Below, one piece after another: positions 877 through 46,288 of a stretch of DNA of 64,000 nt. The DNA is taken from the NCBI RefSeq assembly GCF_041248615.1, contig NZ_CP158425.1. One strand, written 5' to 3'. This DNA is from Escherichia coli (GTDB lineage Bacteria; Pseudomonadota; Gammaproteobacteria; Enterobacterales; Enterobacteriaceae). The translations under genes were made by a program, and so were the position numbers. The first letter of the stretch is position 1, and each line of letters opens with the position of its first letter. The notes below the pieces were generated by a model. That model was not told where the DNA came from. It did not search any database and saw nothing but the letters and a program-made list of their open reading frames with translations.

Positions 877-1104
877 AAGCTACCAGGTATGCACTGGTTA
901 TAACATGCTGAAAAATAAGTTATTTATCAGTGCTATGCTTAGTGCTTCTTTTACTACTGGTCTTACATCTCGGCTTAATGTGCAAAAAAGTAACTTTTCA
1001 AACGAACTCCTGACTATTCATCTGTATGCCTTTCTGGCTCAAGCGTACATGCTAGCCCATTCATTAAATGCCGTGGAGCAAGATGGTTTCGTGCGCACTC
1101 TATT

Positions 1105-1610
1105 CACGTGAATGCCTTTTGTGGATTACGCCTCTTACATTCATACAAATGCTTTTGATGTCGGTATCCCAAAAAATCATTCATTGAAATGCTTTTGTTT
1201 GCCACTGTATCCCGAGCATAGCTATGCAGTGGTATAAAAAGGCATTTTGGTGAATGGCATTAGGTCGAATGACACACAGTACAGCTTTGTTAAGAGCGAG
1301 AATGGTCCAAGACATCTATGACATTGGGCATCAGAAGGACTATGTGTTTGATATGAGATCAAAAAAATATCAGAAGCATCACAACTCCAATGGCATTCAA
1401 AGAAATGCCTTTGTTTTGTTAGTACACCAAACAACCCAAAATTCATGCAGTTATATCAAAGACTCATTCGCAAAAGGACTCAGCCAGAAAGCATTTGCTT
1501 AAATAGCATTGGCCAAAAGCATTCGAATGAATGATGTTCATATGGACAAGACAAAGTCCCACTCACGCCCAGAGGTGTAAAAGGCATTTAGATGAATGAC
1601 GCACCGGCCG
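1105..1610. repeat. Iteron-like repeat cluster downstream of repA (candidate origin/incompatibility repeats)
   Basis: At least 8 copies of a core AAATGC(C/T)TTT or AATGGCATT in both orientations, e.g. tgaatgccttttgtgg, acaaatgcttttgatg, tgaaatgcttttgtttg, aaaaggcattttggtgaatggcatt, caatggcattcaaagaaatgcctttg, aaaaggcatttagatgaatg. Confidence 0.5.
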
Positions 1611-1997
1611 AGGATTGTATGTAGTTTCTCCAACTGATAGTTGCCGAACCAGGGAGCACAGTGATATGCGGCCTTCTCAGAATCAAGAGATAGATATTAA
1701 GGGAACAAAAAAGATTAGATATGAAGCTTAGTTACCTGCCCGATATCTAGTTAGAGCTTTTCAAACCATCAAAAGTGACTTTTATGCTTGAGGAGTCTCA
1801 TCAGCTTCAGGATTGAGCTTAACGTAATCTTACCCCCTCCCCTCTTTCAAACTTTTACTAAGCGTTCACTGGTACTTTTCAAAGATTATGCTTTAGGCCC
1901 CTTTGCTTAAAAATTCACCAATCGCTAAACGTTAAAAAAAGGGGGTTTATGCGAACGGAAGGATCGGAATAAAAAAGTATTATTCATTCGCGTTTAC

Positions 1998-8954: not shown

Positions 8955-11636
8955 ATGGAAGCTATCAATAATTACAATAGCGGTTTAAATCGCCATCAAT
9001 TAGGTGGGTTTATCCCTGTTTACGATCAATTAGCAGGGACTCACTATTTTTTGATTGATGGCAACAGATTAGGGTTTATGTTTATCTGTAATCCATCACC
9101 TGGAGTTTTTGATAATCAGCAAGATGTTCTTGCTGAAATGTTCAAAATGGATTTTCCTACAGATACTGTCTGTCAAATATCTCTGACTGCATTGCCAGAC
9201 TTGACTTTACAGCTTAGTGCTTGGTCAGCTGTGCGAGGTGGGCGTATGACTGGGAACGATAAGCTTAAAGCAGATCTGCTTAATGGTTATCAGTTGGACT
9301 ACTACGACAGAAGTATGCATAAGCCTTTAAAACCTGATCATGATAACCTTATGTTGAGGGATTTTCAGGTATGGATCTCGCTATCGATTCCTTTACAGTC
9401 TGCCCTTCCTACCGAGCTGGAACATTCGCGTATCGATTCACTTTACTCTGAACTTGTAAGTAAGTTAATTACGATTGGACTGCATCCGTTTAAGGTCGAT
9501 GCAGAAAACTGGCTCTATTGTATAGATAAGGTCGTAAACCCCGGAAAGAACTCTCGGTGGGCTGAAGGTTTTATAGACGTTAACACTATGAAAAGGCTTA
9601 ATGAACAAGTTAACGTTCCCGGCCGTAAGTATACAGTCACAGAAAATCATTTCTCATCAGTCACACAAAGTGACGACGAATCTGAGCATCGTTACTTCAA
9701 ACAACTTTCCGTTGTAAAGTTTCCTGAATACGTCAATTTCGGTTGTATGTATGAGTTAGTAGTTAACTGGATGCATGGACGTAAGACAATTTTCAGCCCA
9801 TTTATGATCACTCAGACTGTTCAGTTTGCCGATCCGCTCAAGTTGTCAAAAGAAAACGTCCGCTACAAAGCAATCACTAATAAACAGGCAAGTATACCTT
9901 CAGTTGTCACATTCTGCCCTCGCCTGCGGGATATGGATAATGACTACATGGCCGTAACTCGCGAGCTTGAGGATGGCGCAAAGCTTTTAAGAGGGTATCT
10001 TACTTTCACTGTTATGGGTAGTAATGCCAATTCTGTGCAGACAGCAGCTAACGATCTCAAATCCTTTTACCTCGAAAGCCGGGTCAAAGTAGCAGATGAT
10101 TCCTTTATCGTTTTCCCGTCATTTATGTCATGTCTGCCAATGTGCAATGACCCAAAGACAATTTTCGACCTTGACCGATCCGAAGTAGTGAGCAACACCG
10201 GAGCGGCTCATATGACGCCGATCTTTGGGCCCTGGAAAGGTAATACAGATAGACCAGTACTGAGTTTAGTTTCTCGTGAAGGTCAACTCATGGGACTTGA
10301 TATTTTCAAGACTTCTGCAAGCTATAACATGGTTATTGGTGCAACGTCAGGTGCAGGCAAGTCATTCTGGACAGCATATCTAATCAATAACTATCTTGGA
10401 GCTGGACCGCGATCTAATAACCTCGTTCATTATCGCTCAACATTTAAGCATTTTTTAGAAAACGAATACCCAGATGATGATCCTGATGGTGCTCAAGTTT
10501 TTGTAGTGGACGTGGGGCGTTCTTACCAGGGGATTGCGGAACAATATACAAACAGTCAATTTATTGATTTCGGTAAAACCCCTGACTTCACCCTAAATCC
10601 CTTTGCCTTCCTAACTGACATCACTGTTAACGACGATGTATTTAACGAAGCACCTGAATTTACCGGTGAATCAACTTCAAACGATGCAGAAAAAGACAAA
10701 GTTGCTCAGACCATAATGGTTCTGAATCAGCTAAAAATTATGGCTTCAGAGAAAGGCCTTATCGATGATTATCAACAATCAGTGATGCTTCAGCTTATTG
10801 CAGAAGAGTACCAGGAATCCAGAAAATCAGGTCGGACCGGTTCAATAACCGGCTTTGCTCTGCGTTGCAAGAAGCATGAAGACAAACGTATAAAGGATAT
10901 TGGGGAGCAACTCGGAGCATGGTGCGAAGGTGGAATTTATGGGCACCGGTTTACCGATACGTTGCCTCCAATCAACTTCGACAGCAGATTTATTGTTTTG
11001 GAACTGGAGGAGCTAAAAGGCACCCCCCACCTTCAGACAGTTGTTTTAATGTCTATCATTCAGGCTGCTCAGCATGCAATGTTCATCAAAAAAGATGGGC
11101 GTCGTCGCTTGTTCATCCTAGATGAAGCTTGGGAGTACATTCGTCCTGATAATTCATCAGGTGCCGGAAATCAATCAAACCAATTCTTCTCTTCCTTCCT
11201 CGAAGCGGCATGGCGTAGGTTCAGGAAAACAAACTGCGCTGGCATCTGTATCACACAGTCGTTTGAAGATTATTTTACTTCTTCTGTTGGCCGGGCCCTG
11301 ACTGCTAACTCGCCTTGGAAGATAATCATGAAACAAGAAAAAGAAAGCATTGAAGCAATGAAGGCTAATAAATATTTTTCTACTTCAGATGCAGAATATG
11401 AACGAATGAAAAATATTCGTACAGTCAAAAAGGTGTTTTCAGAGATGTTAGTCAGGTTCGAAAACTTCCAAGAGATCTGTCGGTTATACGTAGACCGGAA
11501 AATGGAGCTTTGTTTTACTACGGATAGTGCTGACAGGAGTAAATTATGGGAAATTCAAAGCCGCGAGAATTGTAGCTATGGCGAGGCAATAGAAATTCTC
11601 TATGCTCAAGAAGTAGCAGCGGGTTTGGCCGCGTAG
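8955..11636 (+). CDS. trhC: TraC/VirB4-family type IV secretion ATPase
   Basis: 893-aa ORF with Walker A (GATSGAGKSF) and a DE-type Walker B region (FILDEAWEY); size and operon position typical of F-type TraC. Confidence 0.9.
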   Translation: MEAINNYNSGLNRHQLGGFIPVYDQLAGTHYFLIDGNRLGFMFICNPSPGVFDNQQDVLAEMFKMDFPTDTVCQISLTALPDLTLQLSAWSAVRGGRMTGNDKLKADLLNGYQLDYYDRSMHKPLKPDHDNLMLRDFQVWISLSIPLQSALPTELEHSRIDSLYSELVSKLITIGLHPFKVDAENWLYCIDKVVNPGKNSRWAEGFIDVNTMKRLNEQVNVPGRKYTVTENHFSSVTQSDDESEHRYFKQLSVVKFPEYVNFGCMYELVVNWMHGRKTIFSPFMITQTVQFADPLKLSKENVRYKAITNKQASIPSVVTFCPRLRDMDNDYMAVTRELEDGAKLLRGYLTFTVMGSNANSVQTAANDLKSFYLESRVKVADDSFIVFPSFMSCLPMCNDPKTIFDLDRSEVVSNTGAAHMTPIFGPWKGNTDRPVLSLVSREGQLMGLDIFKTSASYNMVIGATSGAGKSFWTAYLINNYLGAGPRSNNLVHYRSTFKHFLENEYPDDDPDGAQVFVVDVGRSYQGIAEQYTNSQFIDFGKTPDFTLNPFAFLTDITVNDDVFNEAPEFTGESTSNDAEKDKVAQTIMVLNQLKIMASEKGLIDDYQQSVMLQLIAEEYQESRKSGRTGSITGFALRCKKHEDKRIKDIGEQLGAWCEGGIYGHRFTDTLPPINFDSRFIVLELEELKGTPHLQTVVLMSIIQAAQHAMFIKKDGRRRLFILDEAWEYIRPDNSSGAGNQSNQFFSSFLEAAWRRFRKTNCAGICITQSFEDYFTSSVGRALTANSPWKIIMKQEKESIEAMKANKYFSTSDAEYERMKNIRTVKKVFSEMLVRFENFQEICRLYVDRKMELCFTTDSADRSKLWEIQSRENCSYGEAIEILYAQEVAAGLAA

Positions 11637-12060: not shown

Positions 12061-15000
12061 CTTATTTAACCCCCTTTATCGCCAATCTGTGATTTTCTAA
12101 TGTTAGCCTACAGTTCTAGGGCCCTTGCTCCCATGATGCGAATCCTTCCACCTAATAAAGATTAACGCCTCATTCCTGTATGCCGGTCTTACGACGCCAG
12201 TGCACGGACAATTTTTGGTCATCACAAGGCCAGGCGGGAGATTTAATCAGGGCGTGGTGTTCCTTTGCAGCAGCTGCGGCACTGTAAGCCGAAGGCGGAA
12301 TTAACTCCTTTATCGCCATCTGGGGACGTCATTAGGGGTACCCCTTTTAACTTGCTCAGGACCATTAAGCTAAAATTCCGGATAGTGATTGACGTAAGAT
12401 TTAGGCTAAGCAGGTAAAGTGATCCCCGCTCCCGGGGTGACCACTTTATACAAAAGGCCGATCGGAAGATTGTCCTTAGGGAAATATTCCTTTAACACAG
12501 CACGGGCACTTACTGCCGCTGCCGGATTTAACCCCCTTAATCGCCAAACTGGGGTACTGTCCTGATGCTGGCCTTCCGTCCTGGGCAGGGTTGCTAACAC
12601 TTGCTCCCATGATACGAAATGCGCCAGCTGATACAGATTAACGTCTCATTACTCCATGCCGGTCTGCCGAAACTGGTGCATAGCTTTTTTCGATATTCGC
12701 ATGAACAGACGCTTGATTTTTTCAGGTTGTAATATACCTGAGCAGCATCTGAAGGCACTTTCAGTCGCTGTCAGATTTAACCCCCTTAATCGCCAAACTG
12801 GTGTTCTGTCCTCATGCAGGCCTTCAGTTCTGAGCTGGGTTGCTATCACTTGCTCCCATAATGCGAAATGTACCTGCTGATACAAATTAACGTCGTATTC
12901 CTGTATGCCGGTCTGCCGACACCAGTGCTCGGGCTATTTTCGGTCCTAACAAGACCTGGCGAGAGATTTAATCAGGGCGTGGTGTGACTGAGCAGCAGCT
13001 GGGGCACTGTTATCCGCTTGCAGATTTAACCCCCTTAATCGCCACACTGGGGTTCAGTCCTGATAGTGTCCTTCCGTCCTGGGCTCGGTTGCTAACACTT
13101 GCTCCCATGATACGAAATGCGCCTGCTGATACAGATTAAAGTCACATTACTGCATACCGATCTGCCGACTCCGGTGCATGGCTTTTTCCGATAATCACAA
13201 GGACGGACGGGTGATTTTATCTTTGCATAGTATGTCTGAGCAGCATCAGAAGGCTCTGTCAGCCACTGGCAGATTTAACCCCCTTAATCTCCAAACTGGG
13301 ATCAGTCCTGATAGTGTCCTTCCGTCCTGGGCAGGGTTGCTAACACTTGCTCCCATGATACGAAATGTGCCTGCTGATACAGATTAAAATCACATTACTG
13401 CATACCGGTCTGCCGACACCGGTGCATGGGCGATTTCCGACGATCTCAAGAACATATGGGAGATTATATCAGGGAGAGTAGTATGCCTGAGCAGCATCTG
13501 AAGGCACTGTCAGCCGCTGTCAGATTTAACCCCCTTAATCGCCAAACTGGTGTTCTGTCCTCATGCAGGCCTTCAGTTCTGAGCTGGGTTGCTATCACTT
13601 GCTCCCATAATGCGAAATGTACCTGCTGATACAAATTAACGTCGTATTCCTGTATGCCGGTCTGCCGACACCAGTGCTCGGGCTATTTTCGGTCCTAACA
13701 AGACCTGGCGAGAGATTTAATCAGGGCGTGGTGTGACTGAGCAGCAGCTGGGGCACTGTTATCCGCTTGCAGATTTAACCCCCTTAATCGCCACACTGGG
13801 GTTCAGTCCTGATAGTGTCCTTCCGTCCTGGGCTCGGTTGCTAACACTTGCTCCCATGATACGAAATGCGCCTGCTGATACAGATTAAAGTCACATTACT
13901 GCATACCGATCTGCCGACTCCGGTGCATGGCTTTTTCCGATAATCACAAGGACGGACGGGTGATTTTATCTTTGCATAGTATGTCTGAGCAGCATCAGAA
14001 GGCTCTGTCAGCCACTGGCAGATTTAACCCCCTTAATCTCCAAACTGGGATCAGTCCTGATAGTGTCCTTCCGTCCTGGGCAGGGTTGCTAACACTTGCT
14101 CCCATGATACGAAATGCGCCAGCTGATACAGATTAACGTCTCATTACTCCATGCCGGTCTGCCGAAACTGGTGCATAGCTTTTTTCGATATTCGCATGAA
14201 CAGACGCTTGATTTTTTCAGGTTGTAATATACCTGAGCAGCATCTGAAGGCACTTTCAGTCGCTGTCAGATTTAACCCCCTTAATCGCCAATCTGGGATT
14301 TTCTGATGTTAACCTACAGTTCAAGGCCCTTGCTCCCATGATGCGAACCTTGCAACCTGATAAAGATTTAAGCCTCATTCCTGTATGCCGGTCTTACGAC
14401 TCTAGTGCACGGGGACTATTTTCGGTCATAATAAGACCTGGCGGGAGATTTAATCAGGGCGTGGTGTGACTGAGCAGAAGCTGGGGCACTGTCAGCCGCT
14501 GGCAGATTAAAACCCTTTATTCGCCATCTCAAGACGTCATTATGGGTAGTCCTTTTAACTTTCTAAGGACCATTAAGCTTAAACTCCGTTTAGAGAATGA
14601 CGTAAGATTTAGGCTAAGCAGGTTAAGTGATCCCCGCTCCCGGGTTGAACACTTTATTCATCGTACGAGCGAAAGATTGTCCTTCGGGAAATATTTCTTA
14701 TACACCGCTCGGGCACTTACAGCCACTGGCGGATTTAACCCCCTTAATCGCCAAACTGGGGTACTGTCCTGATGCTGGCCTTCAGTTCTGGGCTGGGTGG
14801 CTATCACTTGCTCCCCTAATGCGAAATGTGTCTGTTAATACAGATTAACGTCATTTTCCTGCGTGCCGGTCTGCCGACACCAGTGCACGGCCTTTTTTCG
14901 GTCATTACATTACCGGGCAGGAGATTTTATCAGGGCGTGGTGTTACTGAGCAGGAGCTGGGGCACTATCAGCAGCTTGCATATTTAACTCCCTTAATCGC

Positions 15001-15640
15001 CAAACTGGTGTTCTGTCCTCATGCTGGCCTTCAGTTCTGGGCTGGGTTGCTATCTCTTGCTCCCATAATGCGAAATGTATCTGCTGATACAGATTAACGT
15101 CATATTCCTGTATGCCGGTCTGCCGACACCAGTGCTTGGGCTATTTTCGGTCATAACAAGACCTGGCGAGAGATTTACTCAGGGCGTGGTGTGACTGAGC
15201 AGCAGCTGGGGCACTGTCATCCGCTTGCAAATTTAACCCCCTTAATCGCCAAACTTGGGTTTTGTCCTGATGCTGGCCTTCCGTTCTGGGCGGGGTTGCT
15301 ATCACTTGCTCCCATCATGCGAAAAGTGCCTGCTGATACAGATTAACGTCATATTCCTTCATGCCGGTCTGCCGACACAAATGCACGGGCTTTTTTCGGT
15401 CCTTACAATACCGGGCAGGAGATTTAATCAGGGCGTGGTGTGACTGAGCAGCAGCTAGGACACTGTCAGCCGCTGGCAGATTTAACCCCCTTAATCGCCA
15501 CACTGGGGTTGCCTCCTGAAGTTGGGTTTCAGTTCTGGGCTAGGTTGCTAACTCTGCTCCCATAATTCGTAGTGGGCCTACTCAAGAGATTAACACCTCA
15601 TATCTTTAGACTGGACTGACGACAACGATTCACAGTTAGG
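12061..15640. repeat. Tandem array of about 14 direct repeats of ~249 bp with nested higher-order duplications
   Basis: The motif GATTTAACCCCCTTAATCGCCA(A/C)ACTGG recurs at about 12524, 12773, 13022, 13271, 13521, 13771, 14020, 14268, 14732, 14982, 15229 and 15478, with diverged copies at about 12062, 12300 and 14505. A 749-bp block is near-identical at 12650-13398 and 13399-14147, and the 12061-12600 flank is echoed at 14270-14810. Confidence 0.9.
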
Positions 15641-15973: not shown

Positions 15974-17227
15974 ATGAATTTACTTGAAAAGATCGCCCTC
16001 GTTGGTCAGCGCATGAAAAGCGAGCAGATTTCTCTTAAGGAATCTCTGATGGCTTCATCAAGAGTATCTGTTTCTGATGATAGTGTTGATGGTGTTGATA
16101 GACTGATCTACAACCACTGTTTAAATAAAAAAAATCTCTCTGATTTTTTTGGGAAGTCACGAGTAACGTTCAATAAAATACTTTCGGACTTAGAAGAAAA
16201 AGAAGTTGTTGGTGCACCTATTTATCAAAACAAAAATCATCTTTACACCCGCTGGGATGTTCAAAAAATAATGGATGCCCTGGGTTATCCCAAGTACCGC
16301 GATCATTACTTTAGCAGAGCTATTGTTACTCAGAATCATAAAGGCGGTACAGGGAAAAGCACTACATCTGTAGCTTTAGCAGTAGCAGCTGCTTTAGATC
16401 TACAACTGAATGCACGTGTATTAATGATCGAATGGGACCCACAAGGTTCGATTGGAAGCAGCATGATTCAAAGTGTCTCAGAAGATGATGTCTTCCTTAC
16501 AGCAATTGATGCAATCCTTGGAATTTATGAAGAAAATTCTGAGTATAAAAAATATTTAGATTCAGGATTCTCTGAAGAAGAAATCATCACTAATATGCCT
16601 TTTTCAACGCATCTGCCAAACTTGGACGTGATAACGGCATTTCCGACAGATGCTCGTTTTAAAGATAAATACTGGCAATGTTCTAGAGAAGAACGAACGT
16701 CTTTGTTACTACGTTTCAAGGAAGTTATCTTACCGGTACTGAAGCAGAACTATGATTTGATTATTATAGACACTCCACCTGAAGATTCACCTTTGATCTG
16801 GGCTGCTGACGAAGCGGCCGATGGGATTCTTGTCGCAGTGTCACCACGTGAATATGATTACGCCTCTACTACAGACTTCATGCTTACAATAAGTGAAAGG
16901 TTTAAACAATCACCAAGTAAGGGCGATAATTTAAAATGGTTCAAAGTTCTTGCTGTCAATGTTGATGACAAAAGTCCATATGAAAGAATAGTTTTGGATA
17001 AATTAATCAGAACTGTTCAGGACCTTTTGATGTCCGCTAACATAAAAAATTCTGAAGCATTTAAGGCAGCTGCTTCCAAAGGGCGTACAGTGCTTGATAT
17101 CAAAAAATCAGAGGAACTTTGTTCCGCAAAGCAACTTGATGTCGCAGAAGAATCTGTATTACAGGTATATCAACAATTTATAAATGAAATAAAAAGTTTT
17201 TCAGCTAAGCAAGGAGTTAACGCATGA
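15974..17227 (+). CDS. parA: Type Ia partition ATPase ParA (SopA/P1-ParA-like, N-terminal HTH extension)
   Basis: 417 aa; deviant Walker A (KGGTGKST) preceded by a ~110-aa N-terminal domain; translationally coupled to the downstream ParB-like gene. Confidence 0.9.
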   Translation: MNLLEKIALVGQRMKSEQISLKESLMASSRVSVSDDSVDGVDRLIYNHCLNKKNLSDFFGKSRVTFNKILSDLEEKEVVGAPIYQNKNHLYTRWDVQKIMDALGYPKYRDHYFSRAIVTQNHKGGTGKSTTSVALAVAAALDLQLNARVLMIEWDPQGSIGSSMIQSVSEDDVFLTAIDAILGIYEENSEYKKYLDSGFSEEEIITNMPFSTHLPNLDVITAFPTDARFKDKYWQCSREERTSLLLRFKEVILPVLKQNYDLIIIDTPPEDSPLIWAADEAADGILVAVSPREYDYASTTDFMLTISERFKQSPSKGDNLKWFKVLAVNVDDKSPYERIVLDKLIRTVQDLLMSANIKNSEAFKAAASKGRTVLDIKKSEELCSAKQLDVAEESVLQVYQQFINEIKSFSAKQGVNA

Positions 17228-44269: not shown

Positions 44270-46288
44270 ATGAAATTAGATCTTAAATCATCACCGCGCC
44301 ATATTAAGCGTTTACAGAATATAGCAAAAGTCATTAGCGGCTTAGGCGATGTAAGAGTTGTAATAGACGACAATACCAAAGGACCGTATTTTGATCCTGT
44401 AAATAAAGTTTGTGTTTTACCAAACGGCGATTATAGCGATGATGACTTTGTCAGTCTGATTGAAGGTTTTACCTGTCATGAAGCTGGTCATGGTCGCTAT
44501 ACCGACAGCGAGGTTTACAGTGACGCCTTTAATAGTGTTCTCAAGTCATCTGAAGGGTTTACACGCTTCGATGACGGAATGAATGCAGAGTTTGAGAGCC
44601 TCGCTGAGAAACGTAAAGCTTATAGCAGGGCAAAACGTCTTACCGGGCTTATAAATCTGTTCGATGATGTACAGATGGAAGAGAAGGTTGGTAACGATTA
44701 TCCGGATGCAAAGCGGCGGCTTGCAGCCACTTACGCACTGATGGTTAAAGCCGGAAGGATGACTCCTGATATATCTTCTCGTCCGGAAAATCCTGTCCTA
44801 TTTATTGAGTGGTATCTGCTTAACTCATTGCGAGTAAAAGTCCTTCAGCAGGCAGGTCACAAAGAAACACTCGATCCGTTTTTTGACTATGCCCAAAAGA
44901 TACTTTCTCCAGTAATTTCTGATGTTGAGGAAATTTTTCATGATGCTCTTGGTTGTGAAAATACTCAGGGCTGTGAATCCCTTGCTCGTAAGACCCTGGC
45001 TCTTTTAGAGAGACTGCGGGATGAGGCAAGGGAACAACAGCAGCAGACAGAGCAGGAGGAGCAGGAGGCATATGATGAATCCGAGACCGAGACCGATACC
45101 GATACCGATACCGAATCAGAAGATAAATCGCTTGAGTCGACTGATAGTCGTGAGGATGATTCTGAGGACGATAGTGAAGGTCAGGCAGATACTTCCGATA
45201 ACTCTGATCTTGCTCAAGAGGGATGTTCTGAGCCTTCAGAACTTGCTGAAGATAACGAGGGAAATAATGAACCCACCGGTGGCAATCCCACAGGTGATAA
45301 CATTATTGAAGACGATACTGATGCGATTAACCCTTCCGAGAGTGAATCAGATGAAGCCAGTTCGACTAACGTTGAAGATGAAAGTAACTTTTCATCGGCT
45401 CAATGGGAGATACTGGCAGATTTGTTGGATGCCTTTCTTGGCAGTGATGAGGATAGCGAAGATTATCACGATGCTTTGGCTAAAGAGATTGAAGGTATTG
45501 CATCAAAAGTATCCGATGACGTGAAAGCCGAATTCGGTGCTTCTGAATGGGATATCCCTGATCTCCTTATCGATTTGAATGTTTACAATGAGGCTTTGTC
45601 TCTGAGTCATTCAATCGGTAGCGACTTGTCTGTTTTACAGCAGGTTAAAATGCGTGGCCGAAACAAAACTCATGAGCGTGGAATTACCTTCGATGGAAAT
45701 CGATTAATTCTGTCACCAATGGGAGTTCGTGATGTCTTCAGAGCTCAAAGCGAATCTAAAAATAGAGGGCATGTTGGCCTCGTATTAGTTCGTGATATTT
45801 CAGCGTCAATGGCTAATGATGAAAGATATATTCATGCCATTAAGTCAGATCTTGCTTTATCGATGGCCGCTGAAAGTTTGTCAAAAATGCATGTCTCCAA
45901 TATAGTCTTTCCCTTCAAGGAAAGTGAATTTGAGATTATCAAAACGTTTGATCAAAGCGTTGAGGAATCTCTATCGAAATTCACTCTTGGATGTAAGGGT
46001 TATTATACCCCTACGGGATCGGCTTTAATGGCAGCTGTTGATCTGTTACTTGACAGCCAATTCGATAGGAAAATAATTTTTCTTATAACTGATGGTTATC
46101 CGAATAAATCGGAATTTACTATCGGCGAAGTTATGGAAAAGGCTAAATGTAATGGAATAGAAATCGTTGGTGTTGGTATTAAGACTGATGAAATAATTGG
46201 TTTTGAAACGGACACTTTCGTAACAGTTGATGATACTTCTTTATTGTCTATTGAAGTCAGTAAGCTAGTTCATCAAATACTTTCTTAA
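44270..46288 (+). CDS. vWA-domain protein with long acidic low-complexity linker (CobT-like partner of the AAA+ ATPase)
   Basis: 672 aa; C-terminal MIDAS-like DxSxS (VRDISASM) and later TDG motif (LITDGYPN); central Asp/Glu/Ser/Thr-rich region of about 130 aa. Confidence 0.65.
   Translation: MKLDLKSSPRHIKRLQNIAKVISGLGDVRVVIDDNTKGPYFDPVNKVCVLPNGDYSDDDFVSLIEGFTCHEAGHGRYTDSEVYSDAFNSVLKSSEGFTRFDDGMNAEFESLAEKRKAYSRAKRLTGLINLFDDVQMEEKVGNDYPDAKRRLAATYALMVKAGRMTPDISSRPENPVLFIEWYLLNSLRVKVLQQAGHKETLDPFFDYAQKILSPVISDVEEIFHDALGCENTQGCESLARKTLALLERLRDEAREQQQQTEQEEQEAYDESETETDTDTDTESEDKSLESTDSREDDSEDDSEGQADTSDNSDLAQEGCSEPSELAEDNEGNNEPTGGNPTGDNIIEDDTDAINPSESESDEASSTNVEDESNFSSAQWEILADLLDAFLGSDEDSEDYHDALAKEIEGIASKVSDDVKAEFGASEWDIPDLLIDLNVYNEALSLSHSIGSDLSVLQQVKMRGRNKTHERGITFDGNRLILSPMGVRDVFRAQSESKNRGHVGLVLVRDISASMANDERYIHAIKSDLALSMAAESLSKMHVSNIVFPFKESEFEIIKTFDQSVEESLSKFTLGCKGYYTPTGSALMAAVDLLLDSQFDRKIIFLITDGYPNKSEFTIGEVMEKAKCNGIEIVGVGIKTDEIIGFETDTFVTVDDTSLLSIEVSKLVHQILS

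Follow-up and report, generated by a model that had tools for sequence, protein, structure and literature searches.

Iterons downstream of repHIA in an IncHI2 plasmid: a probable auxiliary, incA-like locus of the RepHIA replicon

The repHIA–trhA interval and its repeats

The DNA analyzed here, called the window, is a whole 64-kb stretch of an R478-type IncHI2 plasmid that begins at the ATG of repHIA, the same codon at which the R478 record (NC_005211) begins. Positions 1–2400 of the window were 99.25% identical to positions 1–2400 of R478 (blastn) and matched hundreds of IncHI2 plasmids (from Escherichia, Salmonella, and Enterobacter) at 100% identity. The same 2400 bp matched 1119 PLSDB records, 1116 of them at an identity of at least 99%, and MOB-suite typed the matching records as IncHI2A, MOBH, and MPF_F. 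The repHIA gene, whose stop codon occupies 874–876, encodes an initiator (RepA) of the Rep_3/P1-RepA family, with Pfam matches to Rep3_N (WH1, E = 6e-7) and Rep3_C (WH2, E = 2e-4) and with 44.6% identity to phage P1 RepA over 92% of its length (E = 1e-66). No match to RepA was found in NCBIfam or, using phmmer at E values up to 1, among PDB sequences. On the other side of the interval, trhA is followed by trhL, trhE, trhK, and further Tra2 genes.

The near-identity to R478, together with the adjacency of trhA and the Tra2 genes (Pfam matches to TraL and TraE on the 3′ side), places the region in the RepHIA replicon, which older literature names RepHI1A(R478). Going by the title of their article, Page, Whelan, and Colleran (2001) reportedly described RepHI1A(R478) as an autoreplicative region of R478. 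The gene order repHIA, iterons, trhA is common to the window and R478, and the repHIA region of the window is effectively the same element as that of R478, from which it differs by a few SNPs and by two compensating 1-bp indels near 1610 and 1898. This pair of indels, located in non-conserved spacer DNA, sets the lineage of the window apart from the R478/Enterobacter lineage. The replication genes of IncHI2 plasmids are given in the literature as repHIA and repHI2 (PMC5034289), and in R27, repHIA (R0036) adjoins trhA (R0034) (PMC7366339).

The features of the interval are listed below with their coordinates in the window, their strand, and the basis of each assignment (PWM: score with a 21-bp weight matrix).

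1–876, + strand: repHIA, encoding a 291-aa iteron-type initiator with Rep_3 WH1 and WH2 domains (ORF and Pfam)
1015–1035, + strand: iteron 1 (TATTCATCTGTATGCCTTTCT; PWM 25.7 bits)
1058–1077, + strand: degenerate iteron (CATTCATTAAATGCCGTGG) with a spacer 1 nt short and without the TTT tail (repeat family D15 and by eye)
1101–1121, + strand: iteron 2 (TATTCACGTGAATGCCTTTTG; PWM 26.3 bits)
1120–1128, − strand: DnaA-box-like site (TAATCCACA, 8/9), the sole one in 850–2050, which could be due to chance
1138–1158, + strand: iteron 3 (CATTCATACAAATGCTTTTGA; PWM 29.0 bits)
1178–1198, + strand: iteron 4 (CATTCATTGAAATGCTTTTGT; PWM 29.9 bits)
1236–1256, − strand: iteron 5 (CATTCACCAAAATGCCTTTTT; PWM 29.3 bits), oriented like the set upstream of repA
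1251–1271, − strand: degenerate iteron (CATTCGACCTAATGCCATTCA; PWM 10.7 bits), overlapping iteron 5
1387–1407, − strand: degenerate iteron, a partial inverted copy overlapping iteron 6 (weak PWM match)
1394–1414, + strand: iteron 6 (CATTCAAAGAAATGCCTTTGT; PWM 28.9 bits)
1485–1505, − strand: degenerate iteron (TATTTAAGCAAATGCTTTCTG; PWM 11.7 bits)
1513–1533, − strand: iteron 7 (CATTCATTCGAATGCTTTTGG; PWM 29.2 bits)
1578–1598, − strand: iteron 8 (CATTCATCTAAATGCCTTTTA; PWM 30.6 bits)
1599–1907, no strand: spacer, not conserved between IncHI1 and IncHI2 (no blastn alignment), with IS sites in other IncHI2 plasmids
1908–2024, + strand: block conserved between IncHI1 and IncHI2, the presumed trhA leader/promoter region (blastn of 1908–2384 to pHCM1, 71%)
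2025–2378, + strand: trhA (H-pilin), first gene of the Tra2 AC operon (ORF; TraL and TraE Pfam matches on the 3′ side)

A sequence-only reading of this DNA had described a dense cluster of AAATGC(C/T)TTT-core repeats, in both orientations, 3′ of the repA stop codon at 1105–1610. This cluster was recovered both by counting the 10-mer and with the 21-bp weight matrix. Seven exact matches to AAATGCYTTT were found in the 64 kb, five of them at 1147–1589 and on both strands, when 1.11 were expected per window and seven were reached in none of 100 shuffles. The repeat alignment that had been proposed for defining the unit length yielded a longer unit of ~21 bp, yCATTCAnnnrAATGCyTTTtg, of which the 10-mer is the 3′ part and which has an internal dyad symmetry (CATT-N6/7-AATG). 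All seven zero-mismatch matches to ATTCANNNNAATGCYTTT fell inside 1102–1597. Eight canonical copies, scoring 25.7–30.6 bits, were detected with the weight matrix on the + strand (1015, 1101, 1138, 1178, and 1394) and on the − strand (1236, 1513, and 1578), along with three weak copies on the − strand (1251, 1387, and 1485), and no score above 12 bits, hence no strong copy, was obtained in the rest of the 64-kb window. The matrix was derived from the eight downstream copies and is thus circular for the window itself; it also recovered copies outside its training set, namely four upstream of repA in another IncHI2 record and ~22 in IncHI1.

Between repHIA and trhA, there are thus eight canonical and four degenerate copies in both orientations, which span 1015–1598, so that the limits first given for the cluster have to be slightly widened. 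The copies are irregularly spaced (37–158 bp) and of mixed orientation, and the array starts 139 bp past the repA stop codon. The last iteron ends at 1598, 427 bp ahead of the trhA start codon, and ~310 bp of non-conserved spacer separate it from the block upstream of trhA; the earlier description of the cluster as directly abutting the transfer-operon promoter was therefore overstated. With a simple scan, no + strand sigma-70 promoter and one weak − strand match were found upstream of trhA. No features were present under the cluster in the PLSDB/RefSeq gene tables, which leave out repeat features.

Iteron 6 and the partial inverted copy at 1387–1407 form a hairpin with a 6-bp stem followed by TTTGTTTTGT (window 1392–1417). 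Together with its T-run, the hairpin resembles a + strand terminator situated in the interval that separates repHIA from trhA (1392–1409 in the scan).

Two other readings of the repeat region were rejected. Two ORFs, 770–1111 (113 aa) and 905–1111 (68 aa), overlap iterons 1 and 2; neither had an IncHI1 counterpart (tblastn), a Pfam match, or a PGAP call, and the ATG at 905 is CTG in the R478 lineage (A905C). A structured RNA was likewise discarded, as the Rfam matches were below threshold and attributable to chance only (mir-208, 24 bits versus a gathering score of 56; group I intron, 15.5 versus 50).

Origin features on the two sides of repA

As the window begins at the repA ATG, the upstream DNA was taken from a complete IncHI2 record (L002). 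Using the matrix derived from the downstream copies, four tandem iteron copies spaced by 21–23 bp were found at L002 4864–4949, 52–137 bp upstream of the repA ATG, with scores of 25.6, 15.2, 7.8, and 19.9 bits. The downstream repeats therefore match the cognate origin iterons in sequence. The DNA ahead of the upstream set has six GATC sites within a 160-bp segment, a match to the IHF consensus, and a stretch of 82–85% AT. A promoter scan of L002 4500–5050 revealed no sigma-70 consensus for repA.

By contrast, the DNA downstream of repA (850–2050) contained two GATC sites, no IHF-consensus match, and no 40-bp window with at least 80% AT. The sequence-only reading had suggested a search for DnaA boxes and an AT-rich unwinding region; downstream of repA, it returned one 8/9 DnaA-box-like site and no AT-rich 40-mer, whereas features of this kind were found upstream. 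Origin-type features all sit upstream of repA, and none occurs in the downstream cluster besides the single DnaA-like site. The downstream array is thus located outside the minimal origin, lacking a DUE, a Dam cluster, and a DnaA-box array, and it does not have the make-up of an iteron-type origin (oriV/oriR), given its irregular spacing, its mixed orientation, and the lack of an AT-rich element or Dam cluster.

The presumed RepHIA origin maps to ~4720–4950 in L002 and to ~1220–1450 in two other records (L003 and L004). The block upstream of repA is conserved between IncHI1 and IncHI2. In IncHI1, it opens with the tandem DnaA-box-like sequences TTATCCACG and TTTTCCACA, ahead of AGATCAA repeats, while the matching IncHI2 boxes are degenerate (TTATCATTG and TTTTCAACA). 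Because of this degeneracy, the IncHI2 origin is assigned chiefly from its tandem iterons, Dam cluster, and AT-rich stretch.

Related replicons

The IncHI2 RepA is 86% identical at the amino acid level to that of the IncHI1 plasmid pHCM1. The RepHI1A replicon of R27/pHCM1 has the same iteron consensus, with four tandem iterons, a GATC cluster, and DnaA-like boxes upstream of repA and, as in IncHI2, downstream iterons between repA and trhA; in total, ~22 motif copies flanked repA in IncHI1 when scored with the matrix. Downstream of repA, three forward copies are followed by ~15 reverse copies with a period of 43–44 bp. The IncHI1 downstream array is thus regular and comprises ~18 copies, whereas the IncHI2 array is irregular and has eight canonical copies, and the DNA between the iterons cannot be aligned. 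Indeed, no blastn alignment with IncHI1 was obtained for window 877–1907, apart from short matches through individual iterons. Despite this, CATTCAnnnAAATGCyTTT is kept in both IncHI1 and IncHI2, and the persistence of the motif while its flanks have diverged past alignment argues for selection on the motif itself. From its irregular spacing and its lower number of copies than in IncHI1, the IncHI2 array could be partly eroded.

Within IncHI2, nine SNPs distinguish the window from the R478 lineage in 877–1609, and none of the nine lies in an iteron, a weak result (p about 0.05–0.1). The cluster was present at an identity of at least 95% in 1118 plasmid records (at least 99% in 1101 of them), and in 1083 of the 1118 a single unbroken match accounted for at least 80% of the query.

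The layout was also compared with that of phage P1. In the curated P1 record, DnaA boxes, five Dam sites, and five incC iterons carrying PrepA are followed by repA and by nine incA iterons, which are annotated as "RepA binding", three of them facing one way and six the opposite way. The oriR/incC, repA, incA order of elements and the mixed orientation of the downstream iterons are the same as those found here, and the initiators are homologous. The two systems differ in that the P1 iteron sequence (GATGTGTGCTGGAGGGAAA) is unrelated to the IncHI2 iteron, the origin contains five iterons in P1 and four in IncHI2, and incA starts at the repA stop codon, with nine copies in 285 bp, whereas in IncHI2 a 139-bp gap precedes 8–12 copies over ~585 bp. 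Replication of P1 does not require incA, which exerts incompatibility and, by titrating RepA and by handcuffing, acts as a negative control of copy number.

Two more distant relatives that were compared are a Salmonella megaplasmid and IncFIB(K), whose RepA proteins are 62% and 46% identical, respectively, to that of the window. Each has its own iterons on both sides of repA and in both orientations. This two-sided distribution indicates that the layout is a family trait, in which the downstream set corresponds to incA. In RepFIB (P307) and IncFIB(K), with a RepA ~45% identical, iterons likewise flank repA on both sides and in both orientations; the IncFIB(K) iteron (ATTGACTGCGGTATG) differs from that of IncHI2. 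The analogy with RepFIB-type replicons drawn in the sequence-only reading is sound, given these RepA identities (~45% to IncFIB(K) and 44.6% to P1) and the published grouping of RepHIA and the RepFIB RepB in one homologue cluster (PMC6312765). IncHI2 RepHIA shares the RepFIB architecture but is not a member of RepFIB proper, as its RepA is only ~45% identical, its iteron sequence is another one, and the plasmids are typed as IncHI2A and not as IncFIB.

Function of the downstream array

The best explanation of these data, to which we give a probability of roughly 0.78, is that 1015–1598 is an auxiliary downstream iteron locus of the IncHI2 RepHIA replicon, an incA-like element involved in copy control and incompatibility. 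On the best reading of its position and layout, the array would correspond to P1 incA and to the RepFIB downstream repeats. The view that the repeats are iterons of the adjacent initiator agrees with the presence of the same motif in the tandem set upstream of repA and with its retention in IncHI1. It had been proposed that they mark either an origin or a copy-number control element; the control function is better supported than the origin function, since the DUE, Dam, and DnaA-array features are found upstream only. We infer RepA binding, negative copy control, and incompatibility from homology and analogy.

According to this model, RepA monomers produced from the adjacent gene would bind each ~21-bp unit, and the downstream array would soak up RepA (titration). 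Through handcuffing, RepA may also couple the array to the four iterons of the origin upstream of repA, either in cis or on a sister plasmid. Initiation would then become less frequent as the plasmid concentration rises, which would keep the copy number low, and plasmids carrying the same iteron, IncHI1 included, would be subject to incompatibility. Cross-titration between IncHI1 and IncHI2 is expected from their shared iteron consensus and 86% identical RepA proteins, and this fits with the classical scheme, in which HI1 and HI2 are grouped as incompatible.

Natural insertions bear on the importance of the locus. IS1B was found in repA at 674–682 in otherwise intact IncHI2 plasmids and, in other IncHI2 plasmids, ISVsa5 lies within the iteron cluster at 1273–1282, a 291-bp element within the last iteron at 1592–1597, IS3-family elements at 1658–1663 and 1672–1675, ISApl1 in trhA at 2087, and IS421 at 2401–2412. 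The insertions in repA and in the cluster of otherwise intact plasmids show that the RepHIA replicon and its control locus are dispensable in plasmids with another replicon. Such dispensability is consistent with the presence in IncHI2 of RepHI2, a second replicon with 76–81-bp iterons, and the replicons of R27 were reported to be redundant (PMC4853401). The R27 "incC" study concerns a RepFIA-like replicon and not RepHIA. The repHIA–trhL interval as a whole is a recurrent IS target in other IncHI2 plasmids (loci L002 and L006–L011).

The natural IS insertions in repA and the cluster would also be expected if the array were a decaying remnant of an IncHI1-type 44-bp array with little effect on copy number, RepHI2 being the dominant replicon in IncHI2. 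Such decay could account for the eight canonical copies as compared with ~18 in IncHI1, for the loss of the 44-bp periodicity, for the four degenerate copies, and for the degenerate DnaA boxes at the IncHI2 origin. We nevertheless consider it unlikely, as the eight canonical copies retain every core consensus position and contain no between-lineage SNP, the cluster is uninterrupted (at least 80% coverage) in 1083 of 1118 records, and the title of Page et al. (2001) calls RepHI1A(R478) autoreplicative, which points to an active replicon. Tolerance of IS insertions within the cluster speaks as well against the cluster being the origin, or a second origin, of the RepHIA replicon, at which bound RepA would open the DNA and load the helicase, an argument that is weakened by the second replicon. 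This function appears quite improbable from the composition of the cluster, which has no 40-mer with at least 80% AT, two GATC sites only, no IHF match, and irregular copies in mixed orientation, and from the presence of the classical features upstream, where they form a block that IncHI1 and IncHI2 have both conserved and that follows the arrangement annotated for the P1 oriR. The many RepA-type iterons of the cluster and the DnaA-box-like site (8/9) that abuts iteron 2 at 1120–1128 would be compatible with an origin, and some iteron plasmids do have their origin downstream of rep.

Finally, the repeats might be sites for another protein unrelated to RepA, such as one that regulates the trhA transfer operon or acts in partition, since the cluster has repA on one side and the thermoregulated trhA operon on the other and the internal dyad of the unit (CATT-N6/7-AATG) resembles many regulator operators. 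However, the tandem set of the repA origin/promoter region is built from the identical motif, relatives with 46–62% RepA identity and different iterons have the same two-sided distribution around repA, and no copy was found close to any other tra or par operon of the window, which together make this proposal hardly credible.

In R27 at 25 °C, repHIA expression was reported to be 2.4-fold lower and that of trhA 14-fold higher (PMC7366339). It is conceivable, though very unlikely, that an IncHI1-type array of ~18 regular copies (44-bp period) was remodelled in IncHI2 into eight irregular ones, one of which forms the terminator-like hairpin, and that the array, when loaded with RepA, serves as a roadblock or boundary separating repHIA from the trhA operon, which responds to temperature in the opposite direction. 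If so, replication control would be coupled to the expression of transfer functions, or cross-incompatibility between IncHI1 and IncHI2 would be altered.

The RepHIA replicon has already been cloned and described, and its architecture is of the textbook P1/RepFIB type. The main value of the present analysis lies in the exact coordinates and in the comparison with IncHI1, with a modest practical gain and unchanged concepts. IncHI2 plasmids play a major part in the carriage of resistance genes, mcr-1 and mcr-9 among them, and more than 1100 sequenced plasmids contain the region. Telling origin iterons from control iterons is relevant to replicon typing, to the prediction of IncHI1/IncHI2 incompatibility, to the construction of mini-replicons, and to the design of plasmid-curing tools based on iteron decoys or CRISPR.

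Other repeats were observed elsewhere in the window. The RepHI2 replicon, with its ~80-bp iterons, was considered and is absent from this region, the sole large tandem array of the window being one with a 249-bp unit. This 3.1-kb array (12504–15594; 12.6 copies, 73% matches, without a sub-period) fills most of the 4.3-kb gap between trhC (8955–11636) and parA (15974–17227), in which no ORF of at least 120 aa was found. The parA gene lies 499 bp, i.e., two units, further along than in R478, indicating that the copy number of the 249-bp unit varies between plasmids, and the array may be a partition site or an incompatibility determinant. A tandem hexamer, CCGATA, is repeated 5.7 times at 45081–45114.
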